Notes: generated from the letters alone by a model not told the origin. Shown: positions 10,995 through 48,647, counted from the first letter of the stretch. The stretch is 64,000 bases of DNA from Biomphalaria glabrata (GCF_947242115.1 NC_074716.1:24112637-24176636), one strand, 5' to 3'. Numbers and translations: made by a program.

Positions 10995-11402
10995 CTGTTG
11001 AATTGTATTCAAATGAATTTCAAGACTAGATCAGACAAATCTAAGGACTTTAGGACTTAACCGAACAAACTTGATAAGTTAGAACAATCTTACTAGTCCG
11101 AAAACTGATTAAGAAATAAGCATTAACTTTAATTTAAAAAAAAAAAGTTTAATCCTCTAGACCAGTGTTTACCGAATTGTGTTAGGTGGACCACTAGGCT
11201 GTATAAGGTGTTCCACAAAACTAATGGAGTAATTAACAAGTAGGCCACCAAATAAATGAATCTCCAAGTAAAATGCAGGGGAAAAAAAGATTTGTATAAG
11301 TTCTTGTTAATAAAATAAGTTCTAAAACATCAATTTGAACTTTGAACTGTTCTATATTCTGAATCTAATTTGAAACAAAGTTCCCCTTTCAGACCATGCT
11401 GT

Positions 11403-11650
11403 CTGCAGGGTAGATAATGTTAAGGTCATCTCTTTCTTTGGCTAACATTTAACTAGCAGGGTGTGATATGGCCAGCACAACCACCTACCACCTTTATTTC
11501 CCCCACTAAAGTCAGGTACCCATAAGAATTGGGTGGACTCAAGGGCTCCCTAAAAATCCTGAAATTCAAAATCCCAGCCTTCACCCAAATTCAAATGCAG
11601 GACCTCAAGTTCAGAAGCCAAGCACTTAAATACTCAGCCACTGCGCCCCA
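11403..11650 (-). mobile_element. tRNA-derived SINE, copy 3
   Basis: Reverse-complement match to the SINE family (ggccagcacaaccacc...cccataagaattgggtggactcaagg...). Confidence 0.75.
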
Positions 11651-12719: not shown

Positions 12720-13600
12720 TTGTGTGTAATGGAGTTTAAGTCTGAACTTACAAATGAGGTCATTCAAATTAGAAATAAAATAGGAGACAGCGTAGAGTCT
12801 TCTAGAGACTTAGGCGATCTAGCATTTGTAAGCCTCCATGCACTAAGGCTCCGTACTGGGATTAATCCTTTACAGCAAGGTCCATTTATCTGGCAATGGT
12901 CTGCCTGTCTCCGTACAGAGCGAGACCCCAGCATGCACCAGTTCTGTTTCAAGACTAGTCGTATCTTTGAATGTGTTTCTAAGCACACTGCAGTCGTACA
13001 GGATGTATGTAACTGTCTCGTCTTCCTCGTAGCAGTGTCGACATCTGGGATCGTGATTCTCTCGCGAAATAGGCTCCTATCGGACAGCGTCCAGTGCGGA
13101 ATCTTGCCAAGATTTCTTGCTCCTTTCTGTCTAGCTGCCACCATTCATATTTTCTGTTTGGGCGTTTGAGAACATTACAGACATCCCGTCCCTTGCTGCA
13201 ATGGTCCCAGCTTTGTACCATTTGGATTTGATCCATTCACAAATCTGAACTTTTGCAGTCTCGTATGTTTGCGGCTCCTCTGGTGGGTCTAAAAGCGTTC
13301 CTAGCTTCGCCAAACTGTCGGCCCTCTCGTTTCCTCTGATTCCACAATGCGATGGATCCCATTGCATCACCATACGTACCTGATATTTCCTTTCTGGGCG
13401 CTCCACGTACGACAGTTTTTGCCAGTTGTGTAGGCCATGCCTCTGTGCTCTCGAGATCTTGCAGGCAAGAAAGTGTTTGTAAAAAGAGTTACATTGGCCG
13501 GTGCCGCAGTTCCTCCTCAATACGTCTTTCAAAATGCTGCAAGGCATTCTTGATTCCTTACATTTCCGCAACGTAATTGCTTTCTCCTGCACATGGGCCT
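12720..13600 (-). mobile_element. Degenerate non-LTR retrotransposon 3' portion (RNase H domain plus C-terminal Cys/His motif), with frameshifts
   Basis: Minus-strand ORFs give ...VRMVMQWDPSHCGIRGNERADSLAKLG (RNase H signature W.PsH.GI.GNE.AD.LAK). A shifted frame gives ILARFRTGRCPIGAYF..., the RLRTGHTRLN-like motif of LINE ORF2 C-termini. Confidence 0.7.
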
Positions 13601-16964: not shown

Positions 16965-18535
16965 CACTGCTTGACAGCTCATCAGTCTGATCAAAGTCTC
17001 ACGGTCAAGTTTTCTGTATGTACATCTTACATTCGTAACATCAGTCCCAATGCCAAGGTCGAAGAGATGCTTACTTCTGATTGGCTGACTCCCTTCTATT
17101 GCTTTATAATCCTCACTTGACATTGGAAGGGTTTTGTCTTCATACATGTCAAGCTGTTCATTAAAATCAAATAGAAGATTATCTCCCATTTCTATATCAT
17201 GGCAATAACTGTCTTGTACTTCTCTGGCCATAAGGGTTTCAGCTCTCTTGGAATAAACTGCTGAGTTCTTCAATACAACACTCTTAGTGTCATTGAAAGG
17301 TAAAGGTTGAATTGACTCTGGTTGTAGCTGATAATGACTTTTAAATACATGCCTTGCTGGTAAGCTGAATGCTCTTGGAGATGAAATGCCTTCACAACTG
17401 GGCATTATTGGCATTTCTAACCCTTGGTACTGCTGGGACTCTGCTCTAGCGCTAACGCTTGAGACATCTGATCTTGAGACATCTAATTGTACTGGTTCTG
17501 AAAGCTCTACACAACCAATCCTAATGTCTGCAGATGATAAAATCCTATCTACAGAAGCAGATTTAGAATGTTTAGAGCTTGAGGGTTTTAACACTGGTGG
17601 TGCTTTACATTTTTCAGCAAAAAGAAAGGTAATGTTGCTTCTCTGCAAAGATTGGTTTGAAAGTTGTGTATGCTCACCAGGAGATTCAGACTGTGGTGGT
17701 GAATGTAACAAGGATTTAGTAGTTGATAATGGTTTTCTCCTCATGCTAAACAGAGGCGGAGGAATATGGGGTAGTGCATCCTCTTCTCTTTTGTGGTCAA
17801 TAATAAGTGCAACAGGTTGGACTTGAAGGGAGGAAGATAGTGGTATTGGTACATCACATGGAGGTGGTGGTGGTGGTACAGCACATTTAGTTGAAGATCC
17901 TACAGCATGTGAAGGTAGTGATGGTACTGAACCAAATAAGTTAGAAGAATATCCTGTGCCAAAAGATGCACTAGGCAGTGGGGCTGCACCTTGAGAAGGA
18001 GTTAAGTTAAAGGGTGACCTTGAGACAGAATGAGCTACACATGATGCTGGTGGCACTTCATCTCCTGCTCCAAACCCAAAGACACCAGAGGAAGATCCTG
18101 TGCTAACAAGCATTGTGGGAGGTGGTGCTGCTCCCCAGAATTTAGAACCAAGTGTATCAGAAAACAAAGATCCTGTGCCCAATGGAGATCCCTGAATAGT
18201 GTTGCTCATCTTCACAGAACCAAAGACTTTAGAGAGTGGTGGAGCTTCATATACATCAACCGCATCCATAGTTTTTGACTTCTGTATTGCCTTAGGTAAC
18301 GGAAATGTAGACTTCAATAATTTGGATGCAGGTTTTTGTTTAGAACTGTAACAATGTTCTAGACTTTTCTCTAAATCTAAAGAAATCGAACTATTTGATG
18401 TAGGATCGGTTATCATTGATGGCATTGATAAATCATAATCCCCAGGATGCCCTTTAAAACTTTCCTTTATTAGTGATTTCCTACTTAAAAGCTGTGGTGA
18501 ACCAAGTGTTTCAGCTGTTTTTGAAGATGCCTTTC
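16965..18535 (-). CDS. PARP4: Giant S/P-rich exon (523 codons) with FG/GxFG motifs and PPPPPP. Equivalent of the PARP4 S/P-rich C-terminal region upstream of the MVP-binding domain.
   Basis: 1.57-kb open frame; the ORF track gives 505 aa from the internal Met. Acceptor ttattcag|GA, donor GTG|gtaagac. Phase 1 start matches the upstream exon. Low-complexity S/P composition like the human PARP4 large 3' exon. Confidence 0.7.
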
Positions 18536-19482
18536 CTGAATAAAAGTATCAAACAAATAGGTTGAAATGGTTTTGTTTCATAAAGAAACTGTCTATCTAT
18601 GCACATGTAAGACTTATATCAGCTAGTTACATTAATCAAATCCTTCACACGTAGCAGTTGCAAATAGTGTTCCCACCCCCAATTGAGAACCCCAAATTAT
18701 CCTCATCCAAAACTAGTCCACCCCTCTCTCAACATTGCCTTTATAAATGTTAAATTGTACCTTTGAGAAAAGTGGGAAGGGGCAAATATTCCCCAATATT
18801 TTTAGGCCATCTGCTAATTAGAGTTGAAATTAAATTAAAATTAAACTTAGCAACTCATTTGTGGTTCAATCACATGGTAAGGAAGAGTTCTTAAAAGCGT
18901 TGTCCTTGCATATACAATATGAAATGTGTTTTATCATTGTATCTATTTCTGACTTTCAATTTGATCATGATATTGTAATTTATTATTTTTGAATTTTGTG
19001 TTTTCATTAATTTAAGTAATTATAACTGATACATTTTCAAATCTTGCCAAGACTAAATGGACTGAAGTAGCTTTAGATAAGAGAAAGCTGTACTATCTGC
19101 TAGCCCTAAATACAAATGCATTCTCATGCATGAACTGTGAAGTTTGCTGCTACATAATCAGCTTGCTTAGTCAAAGAAGATTCTAGCCCAACTCAAAAAA
19201 ACCTAAACTGGCTTGGTAGCATCAATTGTCTTTCAAAACAGAAAGAGACATATGTAACAATGTTTTCTAATCTACTGCCTAAGAGAGTTTCTAGACTTTG
19301 TCATTTTACTAATGATGTTACTTTTTGTAGATATTAATATTGTAACTGAACTGTGATGCTGGTCGGTGTAGCCCTATGGGTAATCAGCCGACACATGCAA
19401 CACAGGCCTGTGTACTTAAAAAAGACTGATGTAAAATTTCTCCATTTAGGTCAATAGGGTTTTGGTTATCTGACTATGAACT

Positions 19483-20618
19483 GGTGACCGGTCATTTCAT
19501 CCCCGGTCACTTCATCCCCAGTCACTTCATTACCGGTCACTTCATCCCCGGTCATTTCATCCCCAATTAAGTATTTTATTTATAAATATGATTATGTAGA
19601 ATGCTTTTTGACATTTTATGACTTGTTACTAATGCGTTTATAGTGTCTCCTCTTCCACTTTGTTTTCTTAATGAGAAATCTTATATTATATTGTAAATCT
19701 GGGTGTCTACTTAACTATGGCGCTTCTATTGGATGTGGGGATTGTAATATCATAATTTTATCCGGATCGAAGGCCAAGGTTTGATGGAAGTAGTAAAAAA
19801 TCATTTGAGAGATAGAAGTGCGATTACAATAATTATGACCGTGCCGCTGATAACTTATCTTCAAAGGCCAAGGTGTGGTGCAAGTAGAGGAAATCTTTTG
19901 AGAGATAGAAATACGATTACAATAATTATAACCATGCCGCTGATAACTTATCATCAAAGGCCAAGGTGTAGTGAAAGTACGACCATGTTTCACTTTATTT
20001 TGTTTTTCAATCGCTCTTTCTTGAAAATGGGCGCGTCATTTTTAGCCCTGAAATAAGGTTTTATTTTTTTCTAATAAAGGCGGAGTTCACCCATCCTCGG
20101 GATATATGTCGCCTGTATAAGTTTTGCTTTAATTCCTTTTAAACATTAACGTGTTAAATTTTGTCATTTATATAAAAAAATGAATATATTAAATATCGCT
20201 CATTTCATGATTTTTTAAATTAAAATTTGGTAGATAAAAATGATCAGATGATGAAAATATCAGGGGATGAAATGACCGGGGATGAAGTGACCAGGGGATG
20301 AAGTGACCAGGGGATGAAGTGACCAGGGGATGAAATGACTGGGGATGAAGTGACCGGGGATGAAGTGACCGGGGATGAAATGACTGGGGATGAAGTGAGC
20401 GGGGATGAAATGACCGGGGATGAAGTGAGCGGGGATGAAATGACTGGGGATGAAGTGACCAGGAGATGAAGTGACCAGGGGATGAAATGACTGGGGATGA
20501 AGTGACCGGGGATGAAGTGACCGGGGATGAAGTGACCGGGGATGAAGTGAGCGGGGATGAAGTGAGCGGGATGAAATGACCGGGGATGAAGTGAGCGGGG
20601 ATGAAATGACCGGGAACC
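19483..20618. mobile_element. Foldback-type non-autonomous DNA transposon, copy 1. Terminal inverted arrays of the 15-mer GGTCACTTCATCCCC / GGGGATGAAGTGACC, internal 120-bp tandem pair, 8-bp TSD TATGAACT.
   Basis: Left end ggtgaccggtcatttcatcccc at 19483. Right end ggggatgaaatgaccgggaacc at 20618. The identical 8-mer tatgaact flanks it at 19475-19482 and 20619-20626. About 24 copies of the 15-mer on the right arm. Confidence 0.75.
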
Positions 20619-22272: not shown

Positions 22273-23342
22273 CTAGTGAGTAAAAAAAATTCAATACTTT
22301 AGGAAAATTCATTACAGTTTTAATTAAAATCAATTAATAAATGCCACTAGAGATTCTACTTATTACCTAACAGAAATAACAGCTGTTTTTCATGGACAAC
22401 TGGTTTTAATGTACAATCAAAATTTAATTTTGTATTTTGTCTGATTTTAATCTTGTTTTTAGTTATCATGTCAAGTAGACCCTACTACATTAACCAGTCA
22501 TTCAGCAGTAAGTCTGTCTTAAACAGCACAGGCAGACTCTCATGGTGAGGGTAAAACCTGTGTAGGGCAATTATCCATCGCCAAAATGCACAACATGGTA
22601 TTTTGACAAAATAGCCACAGTACAACTTGCTATGGTGATGCATACCAAATTCTGGAAAACTAAAACTTATTGAATATAATAAAAGATAACATCACATTTG
22701 ATTATCTTTTATAAGTGCTGTAACAAATCTGGATTATTTCACTAATTCTAGGAAATTCTCTACTAAAAATAAAAACATGTGTTTTGAAATATGGACACAT
22801 ACAATATTGTTTAGGATTGTGCTTCTATGTGGCATGATTTCCATTACTAGTACGCCATTGAATAATTTTCACAAGCAATTAGATAATTATAAAGCAACAT
22901 TAGGTTACTTATTCAATTATTCTCATTTAAAACTTTGGTTATTTTTGTAGTATGCTCCCGTGAATGTTTAAAATATTTAATTGCTTGAAGATGTTCTTTG
23001 CCTTCTTTTGTTATCCAACATATGTATGATAAACTTGATAACTTATTTTATTTGCACTGTTGGGGATGGAGCTATAATCATCAACTTATTTTATTTGCAC
23101 TGTTGGTGATGGAGCTATAATCATCATAATAACTTCAAGTTTTACATTCTCAGAAACATTAATAATAATCTTCACTCCTAAATTAAAAATCTCTCCTCCA
23201 AAGCAAGGTAAACAAAAATTTTCTTTTCAGTCACAAAACAAGCAAAATAATTTTTTTTCCCCCTTTAAACAAAACTTATCTAAGGAAAAGAACTGAAAAA
23301 TAGCTGCAGTATATCTCAATAAGTTCCCTTTTCAGATCTTTA

Positions 23343-23500
23343 TGGCAGATGATGTAAAGGTCATCTGTTTTTGTGGCCCATGGTTAATGAAGGTGTCATG
23401 TGGATAGCACACTGACCAACTACCTTTATTTTTCCCAGACTCCTGTCAGGTACCCATTAGAGCTGGGTGGACTTAGAGGCGCCCAAAGATCCTGAAATTA
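23343..23500 (-). mobile_element. tRNA-derived SINE, copy 4 (truncated, lacks head)
   Basis: Reverse-complement match to the SINE tail and body (catgtggatagcacactgaccaac...cccattagagctgggtggactt). Confidence 0.65.
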
Positions 23501-23805
23501 AGTATATATCTCAATAGGAATAAGCTCCTTTTTTCTATTTAAAACAAAATTTATTAACCACTTATGGCATAACTAGTTGGTAAATTTTAAAAAATTGATA
23601 CATGTTTCTGTTAGATATAACAAATAATTTTGCAAAGTTTCAATTTGATGCCAGAATGGGTGAGGGGGAAATAATGTGTAAAAAAAATATTATTTGTTAA
23701 AAATCACTGACTGACTTGAGTCACGAACAAGTGGGCACAAGCAAAACCCAAATTAGAAACAACCTTGAGCAAACAAACACAAGCACAGAGGCAGGCATCC
23801 AATAC

Positions 23806-24799
23806 GGTTCCTGGTCATTTCATCCCCGTCACTTCATCCCTGGTCACTTCATCCCTGGTCATTTCATCCCCTGGTCATTTCATCCCCTGGTCATTTCATC
23901 CCCCAGTCATTTCATCCCCTGTTATTTTCATCATCTGATCATTTTATCTAACGAATAGTAATTGTAAATATCATGAAATGAGCAATATTTAATATATTTA
24001 TTATTTATTTAAATGACAAAAAGTGTAACACACATGATAATAAAATTAAAATTAAATGGCATTAAAAACTATAAAAATTTAACATGTATAAATATAGAAG
24101 TAATGTATACAAGTGTTATCCTGATATTATTAGAAAACAAAATAAAACCTTATTTCAAGGCTAAAAATGATGCGCCCAATTTCAAGAAAGAGCGATTGAA
24201 AAATAAAATTAAGTGAAACATGGTCATACTTTTACCACAGCTTGGCCTTTGATGATAAGTTATCAGCAGCACGGTCATAATTATTCTAATCGCACTTCTA
24301 TCTCTCAAAAGATTTCCACTACTTGCAACACACCTTGGCCTTTGATGATAAGTTATCAGCGGCATGGTCATAATTATTATAATCGCACTTCTATCTCTCA
24401 AATGATTTTCACTACTTCCACTAAAACTTGGCCTTTGATCATTACGTCATGCGCAGAATAATATTTTAATATTACATCCACCACATCCACTAGAAGCCCT
24501 ATAGCTAAGTACACACCTAGATTTACAATATATTATAAGATTTCTCATCAAGAATGCAAAGTGGAAGAGGAAACACTATAAACGCATTAGTAACATGTCA
24601 AAAAATATCAAAAAGCATTCTACATAATCATATTTATATATTAGATAAAATGAGGGCTTAAAGTCAAAGCCATAACAGCACAATTAAACAATGAAAAAAG
24701 AAAAATATTTAATTGGGGATGAAATGACCAGGGGATGAAATGACCAGGGGATGAAGTGACTGGGGAATGAAGTGACTGGGGATGAAATGACCAGTCACC
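23806..24799. mobile_element. Foldback-type element, copy 2 (inverted relative to copy 1), TSD (a)TCCAATAC
   Basis: Termini ggttcctggtcatttcatcccc and ggggatgaaatgaccagtcacc. The internal 120-bp repeats at 24213-24461 are the reverse complement of 19790-20040. Flanked by atccaatac on both sides. Confidence 0.7.
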
Positions 24800-24812
24800 A
24801 TCCAATACATAC

Positions 24813-24872
24813 CAGAGAATTTGGGTGAAATAGACTTCTCTTCAGATTCATCTGCATCCACTTCCATTTCAT
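24813..24872 (-). CDS. Cassette exon A-a: (D)EMEVDADESEEKSISPKFS
   Basis: Acceptor cattag|AT, donor TCTG|gtatgt. 60 bp, phase 1-1. The donor abuts the foldback element that ends at 24799. Confidence 0.4.
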
Positions 24873-25094
24873 CTAATGATAAAAAAAAAGTTAGGTTAAA
24901 CATAAGTTTAAACATACTTGAATTTTGAGATTTTTTTTTTTTCTATTCAATACCTCTTACCTAGTCTAAAGCAACAAATAAATTCATATTAGTCAATACA
25001 GGGGACATAATGACAGGATGGTACTTTTGAACTGAGATTTTCAAGATTTTTTAAGACATTCCTGAGTCCGGTCAGCTCTAATTAATACATGACA

Positions 25095-25200
25095 TAGGTT
25101 GTGACCTTGTGTGACATGATTGGTTGTGACCTTGTGTGACACGATTGGTTGTGACCTTGTGTGACATGATTGCTTGTGACCTTGCGTGACATGATTAGTA
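25095..25200. repeat. 25-bp tandem repeat x4 (tgtgaccttgtgtgacatgattggt)
   Basis: Direct reading. Confidence 0.8.
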
Positions 25201-25413
25201 ATAGAAATAGATGGGATTTACATCATCTAACTCATGGAGTGCAAGGTCTGATAGAATCAGTTAATACTGATCTTAACTGGTTAGTTTATTCTATTTCCAG
25301 TAAGTCAAGACTTATCCAAATCTAAAATAACCTTTACAAATAGGAACAATGTAAGTGAGACATATTTTTTAATTATACACACTTTCTCTATATTAATAGA
25401 AACTAATAGTTAC

Positions 25414-25488
25414 CAATAATTTCAGATGATTTACTTAAACTTGATAAGCTTAAAGAACATGGTATGACTTCCTTTTCTAAAGAAAGTT
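25414..25488 (-). CDS. Cassette exon A-b: LSLEKEVIPCSLSLSSLSKSSEII
   Basis: Acceptor ctccag|AA, donor ATTG|gtaact. 75 bp, phase 1-1. Confidence 0.35.
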
Positions 25489-26492
25489 CTGGAGAGAAAA
25501 AAAATAAATTTCTTCACAACATTATAAGTTAGTTGATTTTAAAATGCATGAGTTAGCTCAAGTCTATAATTAGTTTGAATAGTTTTTGTGCTGTAAAGCT
25601 AATGGTGGACAGAGGTGATCAACAGGTCTACATAACCTAAACAATTATAACAAAACTGTTGTAAGTATTCTTCTTCTGCATTCTCATGATCATGTTGAAG
25701 GGTTCATAAAACTACTCCAATATTGGAGATGAACTATGCAGGCAGTTCCTCAGAGTTTTCCTATATGGTATGATTTGTCATTACAAGGCACAGCAGTATG
25801 AGACAGCAAATGTTCTAGAATATGAAACTAGGAACAAAAGAAACACATGCTATTGTGGTGTATCACCCAAGGAGGCTGATAATATCTCTAATGCGGAATA
25901 CTTAATGACAAGATACTGTTCGAAATCCCTTAGACAAACATGGAAAATAACCTGATTTGACAATCACTGGGCAGTTATCTGAATGCTCCAACTAGATAAT
26001 GAAGATGATGAAATATGCTAACAAACACTTCAGTGTTTAGAATGTAAAACATGCTTGAATGAATAAGATGTAGAAAAGTCAAGGCAGTTACTGCCTTCAA
26101 GTCAGCTACAAAGTCTCTTAGGTACATCAAAAGCAAGTGGCGCAAGGAAATATCATCCATGTTCATTTCATCACTACATTAGACTATGTTTAGCAACTGA
26201 TTGGTCTAGATTTCCACTTTAACATTTAGATGCAGAACTGCAAGATATTTTTTGCCTAAGTTTAGCTTATATGATTCTCAAATACTGAAAAGTCTAGTTA
26301 AACTTACTAAACAAATAAAGGGAAAAAACACAAGAACTTTTGATTATCTTTATAAGCACTGAAACACATCTGGATTATACATATTTTCTCTCTAAATATT
26401 TATCTATCTCATGGTTTTAAATTATCACCAACAGAGTAGGCAGCAGCATACAAACAAATATAGTGATGGAAAATGATAATAGTAATAATTAC

Positions 26493-26582
26493 TTGGTGAG
26501 CTGTCAGACATCCAAATCATACTAGCACTTTTGGATGAAGTAGCATCATCTACAGACCCATCTGCATAAACATCCGCTTCGT
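26493..26582 (-). CDS. Cassette exon B-a: EADVYADGSVDDATSSKSASMIWMSDSSP
   Basis: Acceptor gatcag|AC, donor CCAA|gtaatt. 90 bp, phase 1-1. Confidence 0.4.
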
Positions 26583-26809
26583 CTGATCATTAGAAACACA
26601 ATGAATGTTAGACTAAACATATTTGAATTTTTAGATTTTTGTTTCTATTTTATAATCTGTATGTTTAGCCTAGAATAAAGAAAAAAAAATTATTCATATG
26701 AGTCAAAAGAGGAGGCATGATGGTAAAACACATTCCTTGTGAACTTCAGTCTCTGTGAAGACTAGGATTTTGAACTTCAAGATTTTAAGTATATTCCTGA
26801 GTCCACTCA

Positions 26810-27066
26810 GAGGTGCAGTGGCTGAATGGCAAAGTGCTTGGCTTCCGAACCAAGGAGTCCTAGGTTTGAATCCTGGTGAAGACTGGGATTTTTAATTTCG
26901 GGATTTTTAGGGCACCTCTGTGAGTCCACCCAGCTCTAATGGGTACCTGAATTTAGTTGGGTAAAAGTAAAGGCGGTTGGTTGTTGTGCTGGCCACATGA
27001 CATCCTCCTTAAGTGTGGGCCACAGAAACATATGAACTGTACATTATATGTTCTATAGATTGCAAG
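26810..27066 (+). mobile_element. tRNA-derived SINE, copy 5 (inside tandem unit B)
   Basis: Head aggtgcagtggctgaatggcaaagtgcttggcttccgaacc...ggtttgaatcctgg, then body and tail. Absent from paralogous units A and C, so it inserted after the duplication. Confidence 0.8.
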
Positions 27067-27301
27067 ATATGAAAGCTTTCATGGGTACCAGACATTGGTT
27101 GTGTCATATGATTGGTAAAAGAAGCAGATGGGCTTTACATTAAGTACCCGATGAATGGCAAGGTTTATAAGAAACTAGTTAATACTGGTATAAACTGGTT
27201 AGTTTATTCTATTTACAGTAAATCTCTTCTAAAATAGCTTCTACAAATAGAGACATTGGTGTCAAATCTATTTTAATAAATCAATAGAAACTAATAGTTA
27301 C

Positions 27302-27367
27302 CAATAATTTTAAATGAACTACCCCAACCTCTCAGGCCAAATGAACCACCCAGCATGTCTTCTTTAT
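27302..27367 (-). CDS. Cassette exon B-b: KEDMLGGSFGLRGWGSSFKII
   Basis: Acceptor ctttcag|AT, donor ATTG|gtaact. 66 bp, phase 1-1. Confidence 0.35.
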
Positions 27368-28567
27368 CTGAAAGTTAAGGATAGAAACAAAAATGTATTC
27401 AAGATGATCATTTTTAAAAATGCATGTGTTAGATCAAGGCAATAATTAGTTTGAATGGTTTTAATGCTAAAGCTAATGGTGGACAGTGATGAGCAGCAGA
27501 TCTAATTACAAGAAAAATTATATGAAAATGTGTTGTTGTAGTCTTTTTCAGCGGCTTTCTCCTTATCATGTTTGAGGGTTATATCTGAGATAAACTACAC
27601 AGTTCTGTCCTGAATGGGCAGCTCTCCATATAGTTGTTCTATATGGTATAATTTATCTCTTCCAAACATGGCACAGCAGAAGTAGACAGCAATTGGTTTA
27701 GAAGAAGAGCATTGGAACTCATGTGGTGTGTTATGAAAGGATGCTGACAATATCTTTAAAGCTGCATACTTTATTCAAAATGATCCAGATACTGTTCCCA
27801 GAAATCCCTTAACACACCAATATTAGGAAAAATTGCCTAATTTGGGAATCACTGTGCACATATCTGAATCTGCCAACTTGATAATGAGAATGAAGAAGTA
27901 GATGAAATATGCTAACAAATACTTCATCGTTTAGAATGTAAACATGCTTGAATAAAATGCAGAAAAGTCAGAGCAGTTACAGCCTTCAAGTCAGCTACAA
28001 AGTGTCTTAGGTACATCATCTTTTTTAATTTTAGAAGCAGAATTGCAAGATATTTTTTGCCTAAGTTTAGCTTATAAGATTCTCAAATAGTGAAAGGTCT
28101 AGTCAAACTTCAGAAACAGAATAAAGGAAAACAACACTGGGACATTTGATTAGCTTTACAAACATTGAAACAACTAGGACATTGAAACAACTAGGACATT
28201 CTGTACTTAAAAACATGTTTTATCTAATATTGACAGCCACAATAAATTGTGCCAATATGTGTCACAATTTCATTTACTAGTAAACCAGTGCCACTTGTAT
28301 AGTAGGTAGCCAATTACATTTTAGTAGACAACATTTTCCTATCACAGCAGAAGATTATAAAAGTCTGTCTTATGGTATGAAATGAGATGTTGTAACACTT
28401 TAGGAATAGTTCACATACCTACCATGACAAAATCTATTTACTATTGCTCTGCTACACAAATCCACATTTTCTCTCTACTCTCAAGATTTAGAATCATTAC
28501 CAACAGAGTAGGCAGCAGCATACAACAACAAAATGTAATGATGGAAAATGAAAAGAGAAATAATTAC

Positions 28568-28657
28568 TTGGTGAGCTGTCAGACATCGAACTTGTACTAA
28601 AACTTCCTTTTAAAAAACAATCCTCTCCAAACTCATCGGTATCCACTTCCACTTCAT
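28568..28657 (-). CDS. Cassette exon C-a: (D)EVEVDTDEFGEDCFLKGSFSTSSMSDSSP
   Basis: Acceptor atcatcag|AT, donor CCAA|gtaatt. 90 bp, symmetric phase 1-1. Paralogous to exons at 26493-26582 and 24813-24872. Confidence 0.4.
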
Positions 28658-29123
28658 CTGATGATTTAAGACACAATGAATTTTAAGCTAAACATATTTG
28701 AATTTTTAGATATTTTTCTTCTTAATAATATGTATTATAGCAAAAAGTAAGCAGAATTTTTTTTTTTTAATTTATCATGTTAGTCAATAGAGGAGACATT
28801 GTGGCAGAATGGTAAAACACATTGCTTTTGAACTGAGAGGTCAAAAGATTTTTAAGGACATCTCTGGATACTTCCCGTTAGCCATGTCCTTGTATCACAT
28901 GACTGGCGGCAATAGAAGCAAAGAGGCTTTAAATCATTGAACTCAAAGTTTGAAAGACAAACTAGTTCATACTGGTCTTAACTGGTTAGTTTATTCTAGT
29001 TCCAGTAAGTCAAGAATTATCCAAGTCTCTTTACACAAATCTACTACAAATAGATACTTTTGTATGAAACTCAATTTGAATATTATACACACTTTAAATA
29101 TATCAATAGAAAGCCATAGTTAC

Positions 29124-29186
29124 CGTAAATTTCAACTGATCTACAAGATCTTGTTGTGCGATATGAAACCTTCATGTCTACCTTAG
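29124..29186 (-). CDS. Cassette exon C-b (unit C of tandem triplication): KVDMKVSYRTTRSCRSVEIY
   Basis: Acceptor gtttag|CT, donor TACG|gtaact. 63 bp, symmetric phase 1-1. Only one frame is open. Confidence 0.35.
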
Positions 29187-30657
29187 CTAAACAAAGTTCA
29201 GAAAGGAAATAAAAACATCAGAAGCATTATAAGTTTTTTTAAATGCATGTGTTAGTCAAGACTATAATTAGATTGAATGAGTTTTGTGCAATAAGCTTAG
29301 GGTGAACAGTGGTGATCAACAGGTGATCAACAGATCAACAGGTCAAAAGAACATGAAAAGTAATTTGAAAAATTGTTGATTGTTTTTATCTTCTTCTGCA
29401 TTCTCATTATCATGTTTGAGGGTACAGATAACTATTCCTATATCTGAGATCAACTTTGCAGCACTTTCCAGATTAGGCTACTTATCCTTATAGTTTTTCT
29501 TCTAAAGGGATTCTGTGAAGCTAATGTTCTTGTTCTGGCCTCCCGATAGATCAGGAATAGCCAACATTTGGCTTCCAAGTGCCAATTTTTCTCACTTTTC
29601 ATTCAGAAACACACATTTTTCCCCTTTCACTCCTTCAAAGTAATGGTCATGTGGACACATTTGTTTTCAGTTTTACATACCAACATAGATAGTATAATGT
29701 GAGCAGATGTAGAGGAAGGGATTTCTTCAATCAAAAAAAGATAAACTTTACTTACTTTTTGTCACTTAATTTGCTTTGATAAATTTAATTGATAGTTTCT
29801 AAATGTACCAATAATGTATAACACTGTTAGAAGTTTGAAATAAAACTAATTTTACATACAGACAAATTAAGCAAAACTAGCTTTAGTGATATTAGGAGTT
29901 AAATTTGTAATTGAACACCACAGACAAATCTTCAAATTTGAATCAGGCAAAACAACTTCAGTTTGTTCTTGATCATTTCCCTGAATGAAAATGCTTGCCC
30001 ACAACCAGTATGATGATCTGAAGTCACAAGCATAGCTTAAGTAAATTTAAATTTTCTTAGTTCTATAAATCTTCACAGGATGACATTGCCAAAAATTACG
30101 AATTTCAGATGCATTCAGGAGAGAGGAAAGCTAAAGAAATTTCAATTATAGCACTGAATTTTGTATAAGATTAATGATTTCCATCTGTATATCATCAGAA
30201 GATTTCGTTCACTAAGTGAAAAAAGATTTTTAAAAGGAACTATGCAGGGCAATGGTCATTCAAATGATTATCAAAGGATTCTGTAATAATGTAATATTTT
30301 TCATTGATGTTCACCAGATTCATTTTGTTCTTTTAAATGAGTTTAAACTTCATTTTGAATCCACTGATATTTATTAAGCTAGACAACAAATCTGTCCTGC
30401 ACCTGTAATTTTAAATTAAAGTCATTGAGTTGGCTTGTGGCATCCACTAAAAATGGTAAATGTTAACCCTATCTTTTATTTTTTTCATTACACAAATTGC
30501 CTTTTCCTTGGACAGCTCATCTTTCTCTTCTAGATAATCATGAACAATATTTTTCAACTTCCAAAATCTTCTGAGAACTTGTCCTCTAGAAACACAGGGT
30601 AATGTCCAAAAAAAAATACAAAGCATGTATTAAAAACTACAACTGTCGAAAACAAAC

Positions 30658-30924
30658 CTTTCTGTTTTTCTGTTTCCTGATCCTCTGCTAATCCACCTCT
30701 AAGCTTAAGCACAAGATGAATACAGTCACCAAAGTTCAAACCACTCTCCCCAATGACAGCATTGTCCTCTAAATTACAACCTTTGTAGATTAATCTCTGT
30801 TGTTCTAGAGGCACCCCTTCTTTTTCAAGGAGGATATGTTTCAGGTCAAGGACAGTCATAGAGTCTGAAGCAGGGCAGCTTACAGATTTGCCAGTTAAAT
30901 TTTTGACAATTAAAAACCTCCCAT
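30658..30924 (-). CDS. Ubiquitin-like domain exon: (D)GRFLIVKNLTGKSVSCPASDSMTVLDLKHILLEKEGVPLEQQRLIYKGCNLEDNAVIGESGLNFGDCIHLVLKLRGG-LAEDQETEKQK
   Basis: About 43% identity to ubiquitin over 76 aa. Conserved VKxLTGK, KEGxPxxQQRLI, LED and HLVLxLRGG motifs. Acceptor accacag|AT, donor AAAG|gtttgt. 267 bp, phase 1 to 1. Confidence 0.75.
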
Positions 30925-31437: not shown

Positions 31438-32325
31438 CTTGAAAAAAACAAAATAAAACAATGTCAGCATTTCTAGAACAAAAAACATTTTTATTATAAT
31501 CTATAGAAATTCGTAAAAAAAAAACGGTATTGCAGATATGAGCTTGAAGAGCAGTTTGTGCCATGACTGATATAAAAAAAAAATTAAAACCAATACACAT
31601 AAATTTTCTAAAATAAAACTTTGGTACTTTTAAAAAGGCTAATATGGCATATTTAATCGGTTTGTTTCACTATACTTAATGATACAAGCTGTCAGTAAAA
31701 TAAAACTTTGGTACTTTTCAAAACTTGTATGTGACATATTTAATCTGTTTGTTTCACTATAATAAATAGTACAAGTTGTCATGAAGTCATGTTAAGCTTT
31801 TGGGTACATGTGTGTTGCATATTCTTTTAATTTAAGGACATTCCTTCCATTGCATAATTGTGTGCAAATCTACTCATCATGTTCATTGAAACTATACTAC
31901 ATTTTCATGGTTATTTCATCCAGTCTATTCAATTTGTGTTTTAGATTTGGGAAACTAGAGCTCTTTTATAAGTTTGTTCTTATTGGAAGGCTGCTTGATT
32001 GAGTGATATGTGTTTTGAACTGTTGTCTGATGATCCAGAGTTCAAACCCTGCTCACCCTCATCCCCCAGGTGTAAAGCCTAATAATCTTCATTTCTGAAA
32101 GAACGTTCAAAACTCATAAAACAAAGAAAAAAGTGTTTTTTAAAATCCTACACCTCTATTGTCATGTTATAACCCAATAGCACACATCCTAAGGTGGCTT
32201 AAAAAAACATTTTTTATGTTGTTTTTTTCTTTTCGGAATAAGGTCATTATTATCTGTTAAAAGAAAATTTAAAAGAAAAAAAACATAATTTTGTTAATTT
32301 TAATAATAATATTGAGTATTTTTAC

Positions 32326-32453: not shown

Positions 32454-33891
32454 CAGTGGCGTAGCTAGGGTATATGATGCCCAGTGCAGCAGCTTCTCGT
32501 GAGGCCCCCCTCCCTCTTAAAAAAACTAAATAAAACAGCGAAATGATTTTTTTTTCGACCTAATGTGTATTTTTTGTTTAAGTAATGCTAATTTGCAAAA
32601 AAAAAACAAAAAACAATTTAACAACAAGAAATATTAAAATAAAGACAATATTTAGAACTGAATCATCTAGACAAAATTTTAAAAATTAAAACTCAATATC
32701 TCAAGCAGGTCCTAGTTTCGGAAGTTCAAATGCTTCTGAAGAAACTGCAACAAACCATTAAAGTCTCTTTCGCTCCAGATGAAATTCATATTTGTCAATG
32801 CCGTCATGAGTTGGGATGGTGACAAACATTTATATTTACCTACCACATCATGATATGTTCATATGTCTTGAACTATCCCGTCCAAGGAAGAATACATTTC
32901 CATCCTAGGCTCTTTCTTGTGTATGTTAATAAAGAATCTTCAAATTTTTCGCCTGACATCTTGTGGTTAACACATCTTTGAGTTTCTGCGCTAATCACCA
33001 AATCTGAGCACATGCATTTTGTAAAGGTAACACTGGCTTCAGCAATGTTCTTCTGACTAGTAGCTAAGAATGTTTTTAATCTTTTCCATTTAAGTGCGCA
33101 GTCTCGAATAGCCAATCTCTTGTTTTTGAAGGTAGACTTACGCATCCTTAATTCAGTTAATACAGGGCCCCAAAACCCAAGGTTGGTGAAACAAATGAAG
33201 ACTGCATAGCAACTAACAATCCGCCTTATTCAGACCTAGTAGAAGAGTTTTCATCTGTTCTAGTCAATGTCTCTAGAGTTTCTATAATTTTTGAAAATGA
33301 ATCCATAACTATCTTAACGACTTCTCCTCTGGCACTCCAGCGCATTTTAACCAAGCACTTAGGGCTAGTTTCAGTTATTTTGTTGATGACATCCTAGTGG
33401 TGTGCTGAAGTGGATACAAAAGCTGTGTAAACGGTCCAGTGTACCGAAAAATGTTACTGAATAGATTTCAGCTTCAGCTCAAATTCCAGCCAAGCTCAGA
33501 GAATGGTTCGAGTAAATAATGAATTAAGATGATGTCAATGAAAGACTACAGAATTTGTATCACCTTGTTATCCATGACAATGTAACCTCAACAATTACAA
33601 AAATTAATCCAGTTTGGTGATGATTTAGAGTCTAAGGCATTTATTTATAAGCTCTAGATCTAAATGAAACCTGCGTACTGAACAATGGAGTAACAAAAAA
33701 AACATTGGAGATTAATTAAGTAAGTGAGTAAATCAATTTCTAGTTAACATTTAAAATTCAGTACTTTGTCTTTGTTCATGTATGTAAAATGCATTTATTT
33801 TATTGAGAAAATTGATCCTTAGTTTGATGCCCCAAACCATGTGATGCCCCATGCGGCCAGCACCACTTGCACATGGCTAGCTATGCCACTG
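32454..33891. mobile_element. hAT-like non-autonomous element (TIR CAGTGGCGTAGCTAGG..., perfect 8-bp TSD TTGATATT) in the PARP4 intron between exons 28 and 27
   Basis: Left end cagtggcgtagctagggtatatg. Right end catggctagctatgccactg is the reverse complement. ttgatatt lies directly outside both ends (32446-32453 and 33892-33899). TIR fits the hAT YARNG rule (CAGTG). Confidence 0.75.
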
Positions 33892-34806
33892 TTGATATTA
33901 CTGTTCTGTGAATAAAATGCAAGATCAAAAGATTCATGTCCATGAATAAACTAGAGTTCATTTAAATCTCATTTTAAAATCCAACTTACTTAATGTATGC
34001 TCAAATAGCTTTGAATTCTGTTTTGTTTTGTTGAGCATTTTGTTGCCTCAATTGTAGGTGAAAATATATTTCTGCTTTCTCTTTTTCTAGTAGTCATGGA
34101 TAACTCTTTTTAACAGATATACATAACCCATAATAGCACAGATCCCTCAAACTCATTATTCATTCATGTATCTTCAATCGCTAAACCCTGCTCCAAGTTT
34201 CTTATTCTTCTTCATCTAACCAGCATTTTACTGGCAGTAAGCCCTTTGCAAAGTAGCATGCTGTTATTCTCTGCTGTCCCACATTGCCATATAATCTTTT
34301 GAAACTTTTTCTATACACTAAACTATACAACTGCTTAACTTCAATGACATAGCCCTGTAACTTCCAGGATACAAGGACCTTAAAAGCTAGGCAATAAGTT
34401 GTGATTTAGTTCTTTGGGATTAGGGTTAGTTAAGGTGCTGGATAACAGAAACTTTTTCTTATGTTCATAAACAGCCTCACTGACCAATAAATATTTTGAA
34501 CTTAATATCAATAGAATTAGTTTTGATTAGTAGGCAGCTGCCTAAGTCATGTGATGCTATTTCCAGATTGCCATTTTGATGGTCCCAGGTTTGAACTCTT
34601 CCCACTGTTATTCTGCCGGAGGTTTGGGCTAGGACGTAATAACCTTGATTTCTGATTGTTTTTAACCCAAGAAAGATTCATAGTATTTACAACAAATGTC
34701 CAATAAGGATAACTAAATCAGTCTTAGTCTTAGAAACTTACAGGTAAAGTCAAATCTAGTTGTTACTCTTACAAAAAAATGAATATCTGACTGTGGAAAC
34801 GAATAC

Positions 34807-48178: not shown

Positions 48179-48420
48179 CTAAAGTAGAATAAAAGGGTTG
48201 AGCAAGTTTTTTAGTATCTAATAAATGATGTGAAACAGAGAATAAACAATTATTGTAATAATAAATTTTCTTAATTTCTAGATGCTATATGAACATGCTC
48301 AAAAAAAATAAATCTTTTAGTTTGTAAAAATGTATAATTCTGGTTATCTAAGCTATTATATTAAAATAATAAAGTTGCAATATTAATAAAAATATAAAGT
48401 ACTCCTTTCAGAACTTGGGA

Positions 48421-48647
48421 TCTATAGGGTAGATGATGTAATGGCCATCTGTTATTTGGTCCACAGTTAACAAGAATGTTATGTGGCCAGCACAACGACC
48501 AACCAACTTGACTTTCCCCAACTAATGTCAGGTACTCATAAGAGTTAGGTGAACTCAGAAGACATCACAAAAATCCCAAAGTTCCACTTTACTGAAATTG
48601 GAACTAGAGACCCCTTGGTTTGTAAACTAAGCAACCAAACCCCTGAC
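48421..48647 (-). mobile_element. tRNA-derived SINE, copy 6 (in the PARP4 intron between exons 8 and 9)
   Basis: Reverse-complement SINE body (atgtggccagcacaacgaccaacc...ggtactcataagagttaggtgaactc). Confidence 0.7.

Follow-up and report, generated by a model that had tools for sequence, protein, structure and literature searches.

Diverged head-to-tail copies of a putative symmetric exon pair in the tail region of Biomphalaria glabrata PARP4

How did three diverged copies of a short exon pair come to stand head-to-tail near the end of a snail gene, and what does the gene do with them? The question is raised by a stretch of Biomphalaria glabrata DNA of 64,000 nucleotides (nt) (GCF_947242115.1, NC_074716.1:24112637-24176636), the whole of which is referred to below as the window. 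An earlier note, made from the sequence alone, described there a tandem triplication of a 2-kb unit in a gene taken to be PARP4, each unit with two short cassette exons. We consider it likely, though short of certain, that an old tandem duplication of the exon pair (b plus a) lengthened the disordered tail of PARP4 in frame. We infer that the exons are spliced into mRNA, and likewise the combinations in which they are used. The units are named C, B and A in order of transcription; within each unit exon b precedes exon a on the minus strand. Positions are collected in Table 1.

The DNA of the window is AT-rich (34% G+C). In a tBLASTn search, 29 exon-sized segments of the minus strand matched the PARP4 protein of Bulinus truncatus (P0005) in order. 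The domains follow the order BRCT (∼53.1 kb), PARP catalytic (∼47-48 kb), VIT (∼43-44 kb) and vWA (∼41 kb), and the best 120 protein matches are PARP4 orthologues with these Pfam domains; gastropods rank first, with Bulinus truncatus at the top. Judged by domains and matches, the gene is a gastropod PARP4, nearest to that of Bulinus truncatus, as the earlier note had proposed. The note's placement of the units directly downstream of the ubiquitin-like (Ubl) exon, which it described as ending in phase 1, was also borne out. Both junctions of this exon are of phase 1 (acceptor ccacag^ATG and donor AAAG^gtttgt at 30658, the caret marking the exon boundary). Past the array, a large Ser/Pro/Gly-rich exon is presumed to follow as the next constitutive part of the PARP4 tail; it has a phase-1 acceptor (ttattcag^GAAAGG at 18535) and a phase-0 donor (GTG^gtaaga), phases that imply more exons further downstream.

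A repeat search of the window detected 11 families of direct repeats with spacings of 1710-2075 bp. BLAST comparison of the window with itself produced collinear matches between 29500-28944 and 27640-27159, between 29461-28930 and 25741-25228, and between 28018-27099 and 26129-25182 (the lowest E-value, 6e-118). The triplication of head-to-tail units was thus recovered by both searches as three collinear units, with two corrections: the measured unit size is 1.86-1.90 kb rather than 2 kb, and the array spans from ∼29500 to ∼22600, past the range that had been given for it. Homology of unit A to units B and C picks up past a foldback element, first at 23756-23721 and then at 22860-22586. Since no homology was found beyond 22586, the array amounts to ∼2.7 units and ends near 22.6 kb; neither a fourth unit nor extra copies of a or b were found elsewhere in the 64-kb window. 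Tandem Repeats Finder did not report the array because the longest period it covers is 500.

Identity between units was 64-86% in the self-BLAST matches and 71-75% in aligned intron columns of the three-way alignment, with local blocks of up to 86-91%; overall, exons included, it ranged from 57 to 86%. The duplication is old and the units are real.

The six exons were found at the positions given by the earlier note, with the peptides it quoted. Each of them has a length divisible by three, an AG acceptor and a GT donor, and is open solely in the phase-1 frame, with stops in the other two; introns between them are 466-1200 nt long. The donor consensus GTAAKT given by the note fits only two of the six exons: donors of the b exons read GTAACT, those of aC and aB GTAATT and that of aA GTATGT. 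The description of the peptides as acidic and Ser-rich needs a similar restriction, as the a exons are acidic and conserved in their first half only, and the b exons are not acidic. The proposal of an expanding module in the PARP4 tail is supported, since between the phase-1 Ubl donor and the phase-1 acceptor at 18535 it can grow with the frame intact.

Because the six exons are all of phase 1-1 with lengths divisible by three, and the flanking Ubl and large exons offer phase 1, the reading frame would be kept whichever of the six were included. Furthermore, donors end in G or A and junction codons begin with G or A, so that no combination makes a stop codon. The best-conserved coding parts are the final codons of b and the opening nine or so codons of a; after splicing, the junction of b and a is predicted to read ..EI(I/Y)^DE-x-(E/D)V(D/Y)-x-D.. 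(an example of a predicted tryptic peptide across the junction is ...SVEIYDEVEVDTDEFGEDCFLK). The least certain of the six is aA. Its donor aligns within the exon sequence of aB and aC, 30 nt upstream of their donor position and 12 nt before the point where the transposon insertion severed the ancestral 3′ end; aA may have been rescued as a shortened exon or may be dead.

To score the splice sites we used position weight matrices (PWMs) for donors and acceptors derived from 25 site pairs of the same gene, mapped by homology to Bulinus. Scores of all six exons lie in the range of these 25 mapped sites. The donors of the a exons scored 7.3-8.6, among the top 0.7-1.5% of decoy GT dinucleotides (top 0.7% for aC), and the acceptors of the six exons scored 2.5-8.1.

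Table 1. Positions of the array, its putative exons and neighbouring features in the window
Feature	Position	Strand	Evidence or remark
Repeat unit C, first in transcription order, 1860 bp	27641..29500	-	self-BLAST, three-way alignment
Repeat unit B, 1899 bp including SINE	25742..27640	-	self-BLAST, three-way alignment
Repeat unit A, portion upstream of transposon	24801..25741	-	self-BLAST, three-way alignment
Unit A tail remnant, homologous to C 28290-28105 and B 26378-26230; array end	22586..22860	-	self-BLAST
Exon bC, 63 nt, phase 1-1, peptide (A)KVDMKVSYRTTRSCRSVEIY	29124..29186	-	PWM scores: acceptor 4.35, donor 4.44
Exon aC, 90 nt, phase 1-1, peptide DEVEVDTDEFGEDCFLKGSFSTSSMSDSSP	28568..28657	-	donor CAA^gtaatt scores 8.57
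Exon bB, 66 nt, phase 1-1	27302..27367	-	a 3-nt in-frame insertion that bC and bA lack
Exon aB, 90 nt, phase 1-1, peptide DEADVYADGSVDDATSSKSASMIWMSDSSP	26493..26582	-	AG/GT, frame, PWM
Exon bA, 63 nt, phase 1-1, peptide (K/E)KEVIPCSLSLSSLSKSSEII	25414..25476	-	AG/GT, frame, PWM
Exon aA, 60 nt, phase 1-1, shortened copy	24813..24872	-	alignment; donor PWM score 7.28
Ubl exon of PARP4	30658..30924	-	Pfam PF00240, 55.6 bits; aligns to Bulinus PARP4 Ubl
Large Ser/Pro/Gly-rich exon, at least 523 codons	16965..18535	-	open reading frame; acceptor PWM score 7.23
tRNA-derived SINE-like repeat, b-a intron of unit B, antisense to gene	26809..27075	+	tRNA head; dispersed copies
Foldback-type transposon, ∼1 kb, in ancestral a exon of unit A	23810..24800	.	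terminal 16-mer arrays; flanking duplication
Head arm upstream of bC	29384..29430	.	homologous arms 25669-25706 (unit A) and ∼27525-27579 (unit B, degenerate)
Tail arm downstream of aC	27861..27907	.	homologous arm in unit B, 25973-26012

The copies carry a signature of constraint. Among 505 intronic three-way aligned windows of 60 nt none was both open and of a length divisible by three in all copies (a count that carries less weight than it seems, as these windows overlap one another and the effective sample is far smaller); the only windows that qualify are those overlapping the a and b exons. In a neutral simulation, restricted to substitutions at the observed divergence, the probability that all three copies remained open was 0.07-0.13 for the b exons and 0.10-0.18 for the a exons. 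An intronic AG or GT is kept in all three units in only 25% of cases; both acceptors and the b donor are kept in three of three units and the a donor in two of three. The introns show roughly one indel per 40 aligned nt, and 73% of these are not multiples of three; the exons, with 137 aligned nt, have a single indel, of 3 nt. In combination, the open-window, simulation, dinucleotide and indel results speak for selection to maintain spliceable, open exons, and the copies appear to be kept in that state.

Transposable elements bear on the order of events. The insertion in the b-a intron of unit B is a short interspersed nuclear element (SINE) derived from transfer RNA (tRNA), as follows from its tRNA-like head (match to Rfam RF00005 at 26819-26876, 29.8 bits, gathering score 29) and from five other copies in the window, 72-82% identical, or 76-82% by self-BLAST (1228-1473, 1579-1765, 11386-11647, 23321-23501 and 48405-48559), several of them within PARP4 introns. 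ARAGORN detected no intact tRNA in this element, as expected of a degenerate head. The copy at 23321-23501 lies in unit A, between the two blocks of resumed homology; the claim that unit B alone carries a SINE therefore holds within the span that the earlier note covered but not for the full unit A. Its conclusion that the duplication is older than the SINE insertion in unit B stands. The foldback element in unit A is bordered at either end by the 10-bp sequence GTATTGGATG, a direct target-site duplication. The element terminates in arrays built from a 15-16-nt unit (GGGGATGAAATGACC[A]) and encloses two 93-bp repeats; an inverted second copy, 82-91% identical, is located at 19482-20615.

Annotated PARP4 tails of other gastropods are built likewise, with Ubl followed by acidic or Ser-rich sequence. 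The gene of Aplysia californica (P0007/L003) has a phase-1 Ubl exon followed by phase 1-1 exons of 27 and 93 nt, of which the 93-nt exon is acidic and encodes (Q)ESESDEDMGMGLFDAEICSASPRKMAEPEA. In Gigantopelta aegis (XP_041352467/L004) the Ubl exon (306 nt, phase 1-1) is followed by five phase 1-1 exons of ∼51-99 nt that encode acidic or Ser-rich peptides. Given these two layouts, a succession of short, symmetric phase-1 exons past Ubl is the normal build, and the window shares it: a phase-1-bounded Ubl exon, then short acidic or Ser-rich exons of phase 1-1 (27-99 nt in the other two species). The other gastropod tails hold a P-stalk-like motif, (S/E)DE(D/E)MGFxLF, which the a and b exons of the window match no better than shuffled controls do. 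A recent tandem triplication was not seen in those two species, where none was looked for.

The history that we favour would then run as follows. The ancestral state would be a piece of ∼1.9 kb just past the Ubl exon of the PARP4 gene of a planorbid-like snail, with a b exon and then an a exon. Long ago, unequal exchange probably caused two tandem duplications of the b and a pair along with its introns. Phase symmetry would have let the copies be spliced at once, each duplication adding ∼50 residues of low-complexity linker composed of a short hydrophobic-acidic core, ..EI(I/Y)^DExEVDxD.., and then Ser-rich sequence. Later constraint would have been loose and confined to splice signals, the open frame and the short junction motif, with the amino acids drifting or diversifying. 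Later still, a transposon would have split aA, whose upstream donor would now define a shorter exon.

Several results weigh against this history. We searched a collection of 5.8 billion proteins, which lacks the species of the window, with the Ubl sequence joined to the cassettes, with the whole gene and with the tail alone. No spliced product from Biomphalaria glabrata or a close species was present there. The sole near-identical entry (P0001, from Logan run SRR16036442, 98% identity) is an unspliced genomic open reading frame in which the Ubl exon is read through into the intron. The tail (cassettes and large exon) had no homologue in the collection at E ≤ 0.01, and only strand, order and phase place the large exon, presumably, in the same transcript. 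Donors of the b exons (GTAACT) are weak; at 4.1-4.4 they score with the lowest fifth of true sites and rank within the top 10% of decoys. Identity between units is lower in exons (57-70%) than in aligned intron (71-75%). The ratio of nonsynonymous to synonymous substitution rates (dN/dS) between unit copies, computed by the Nei-Gojobori method, is ∼0.6-2.2 and at least 1 in most pairs, with no purifying selection on the peptide detected by this measure. Finally, BLASTn, tBLASTn (with PAM30 and BLOSUM62) and a scan for acidic open reading frames revealed no recognisable counterpart within 10 kb past the Ubl exon of Bulinus. Together with the absence of tail homologues, the latter result implies that the region evolves very fast.

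Under another reading, the units form an array of alternatively spliced cassettes; subsets of the copies, either whole b and a units or single exons, would be included to yield variable tails, and the inverted-repeat arms on both sides of each b and a pair might loop units out. We regard this as possible but doubtful. The exons are symmetric, and any subset would be in frame; their splice sites range from moderate to weak, a typical feature of cassettes. A neighbouring exon offers a precedent: Gigantopelta RefSeq isoform X3 omits in frame exactly the Ubl exon of 102 residues (L004 58457-58764; P0125 and P0126), which means that the Ubl domain is annotated as an alternative cassette in that species. 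The arms themselves, of 38-47 nt, pair head to tail with energies of -28 to -38 kcal/mol (z from -3.4 to -6.6); for the head and tail of unit C the energy is -38 kcal/mol (z = -6.6). However, the head arm of unit B pairs no better than shuffled sequence (-16 to -17 kcal/mol, z ∼-0.5 to -0.9), and its decay argues against selection on pairing. The arms may thus be relics of old transposons rather than regulators; both an origin as ancient terminal inverted repeats and a role as pairing elements of the intron are conceivable.

The exons could also be unused. The Ubl exon would then be joined directly to the acceptor at 18535, or the gene would end near Ubl, or only unit C would be used while B and A decay. 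Open frames with AG and GT would be chance survivals within a duplicated intron, which fits codons free of purifying selection, a tail with no homologues, a Bulinus model that stops after Ubl and a transposon that already sits in aA; moreover, the exons were chosen post hoc, by a search for open frames. Against this, copies that differ by 30-43% have all remained open, divisible by three and free of frameshifts, with splice sites kept, for which the rough neutral product is at most 1e-4; and the Aplysia and Gigantopelta models have short phase 1-1 exons at exactly the same position. We therefore find it unlikely that the exons are idle.

A bolder form of the cassette idea would make the array combinatorially spliced and fast-diversifying, with arms that modulate skipping or back-splicing of units and with the junction sequence, ..EI(I/Y)-DE-x-EVD-x-D.., as a repeated functional motif. 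We rate it as quite improbable. If true, the motif might be, for example, a caspase-type xEVD site or a hydrophobic-acidic patch next to Ubl resembling SUMO- or ubiquitin-interaction sequences, and the array would parallel, in an invertebrate, the disordered exon of vertebrate PARP4 that is under positive selection and has been proposed to face pathogens.

In mutually exclusive clusters of the Dscam1 type, competing RNA structures guide the choice among exons. The snail array has in common with them tandem homologous exons, here in pairs at one position of a gene, and complementary intronic elements nearby, an inverted-repeat system that could compete in principle. Use of exactly one b and a pair per transcript, a possibility that the earlier note had raised, is nevertheless very improbable. 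Unlike exons of Dscam1-type clusters, the snail exons are unequal in length (63, 66 and 63 nt for b; 90, 90 and 60 nt for a) and poorly conserved, with the 57-70% identity and mostly unconstrained dN/dS values given above. All lengths are divisible by three, which leaves joint inclusion unpenalised, and the introns are too long for a steric block. A search among the units for a layout of docking site and selectors revealed only the unit-flanking arms, one of them degenerate, and no single docking site paired with one selector per unit.

That the triplication is an artefact of assembly (a collapsed or expanded repeat), which the earlier note had named as a possible refutation, is practically excluded by the divergence of the units, by their many indels and by insertions that differ from unit to unit, namely the SINE in B, and the foldback element with its target-site duplication and the SINE in A.

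The preferred reading, in-frame lengthening of the PARP4 tail by duplication of a b and a pair, places the array within a familiar class of events. In tandem exon duplication, copies of symmetric exons extend repeat or linker regions or give rise to alternative exons. As is usual there, the snail units are arranged head-to-tail, comprise whole phase 1-1 exons with their splice sites, diverged later and have their exons at homologous positions, apart from the donor shift in aA. In contrast to the usual case, the duplicated unit contains two exons, and its copies are very divergent, with dN/dS mostly at least 1, and of unequal length. The process is ordinary and the example fresh; no new element or mechanism is involved. 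Its value is that of a clean, datable case of growth of a disordered tail in which the constraint is to remain spliceable and open, and not to conserve amino acids.

A comparison with vertebrates leads in the same direction. The largest exon of vertebrate PARP4 (exon 30 in human) encodes a disordered region whose length and sequence vary and whose dN/dS exceeds 1 (PMC4038475). Similarly, the snail tail belongs to the same gene family, lies C-terminal to vWA, is predicted to be unstructured, and is variable with dN/dS mostly at least 1. In vertebrates the variability resides in one large exon; in the snail it comes in part from duplication of small exons. The PARP4 C-terminal region thus is structurally unstable in molluscs as in vertebrates, by a different genomic route. 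The snail tail contains Ubl, which human PARP4 lacks, and no sequence similarity between the two tails was detected. Those sections of a PARP-family survey that describe the vPARP clade give its architecture as BRCT-PARP-VIT-vWA and do not mention Ubl (PMC2964712). The large Ser/Pro/Gly-rich exon of the window is probably a lineage-specific counterpart of the hypervariable large exon in vertebrate PARP4.

For annotation, ab initio models that end PARP4 at Ubl, such as that of Bulinus, probably miss a long lineage-specific tail. The Bulinus truncatus gene model ends just after Ubl (..RLRGGGGK) and may be truncated. Young satellite arrays dominate the 10 kb past its Ubl exon (L002, 31900-36100); one with a 66-bp period occupies 33870-34772 with ∼96% identity, and further arrays are located at 31908-32299 and 33250-33550.

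Several gastropod PARP4 tails (P0007, P0010, P0011, P0014 and P0015) contain one or two P-stalk-like motifs, (E/S)DE(D/E)MGFxLF(D), after a Ubl domain that ends with LRLRGG; the Aplysia copy is at L003 51460-51552, and the Aplysia tail matches PF00428 with 35.3 bits (cut-off 28.1). A Ubl domain with an intact GG and a ribosomal-protein-like acidic tail is unusual in a PARP, and the part of the literature covered by our search contains no description of it. A P-stalk origin of the a and b exons was considered and rejected: the conceptual tail has no PF00428 match at E ≤ 1, and a profile of six gastropod motifs scores the a and b exons no better than 1000 shuffles of them. A weak look-alike of the motif, DIEMGDNLLFDF, occurs in the large exon of the window.

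Further downstream, positions 12720-13600 hold overlapping minus-strand open reading frames of 126-153 residues in DNA that is locally richer in G+C (41%). One of them resembles an RNase H/reverse-transcriptase region (..HCGIRGNERADSLAKLG..), and the segment is probably a retrotransposon fragment located in a downstream intron or in intergenic DNA.

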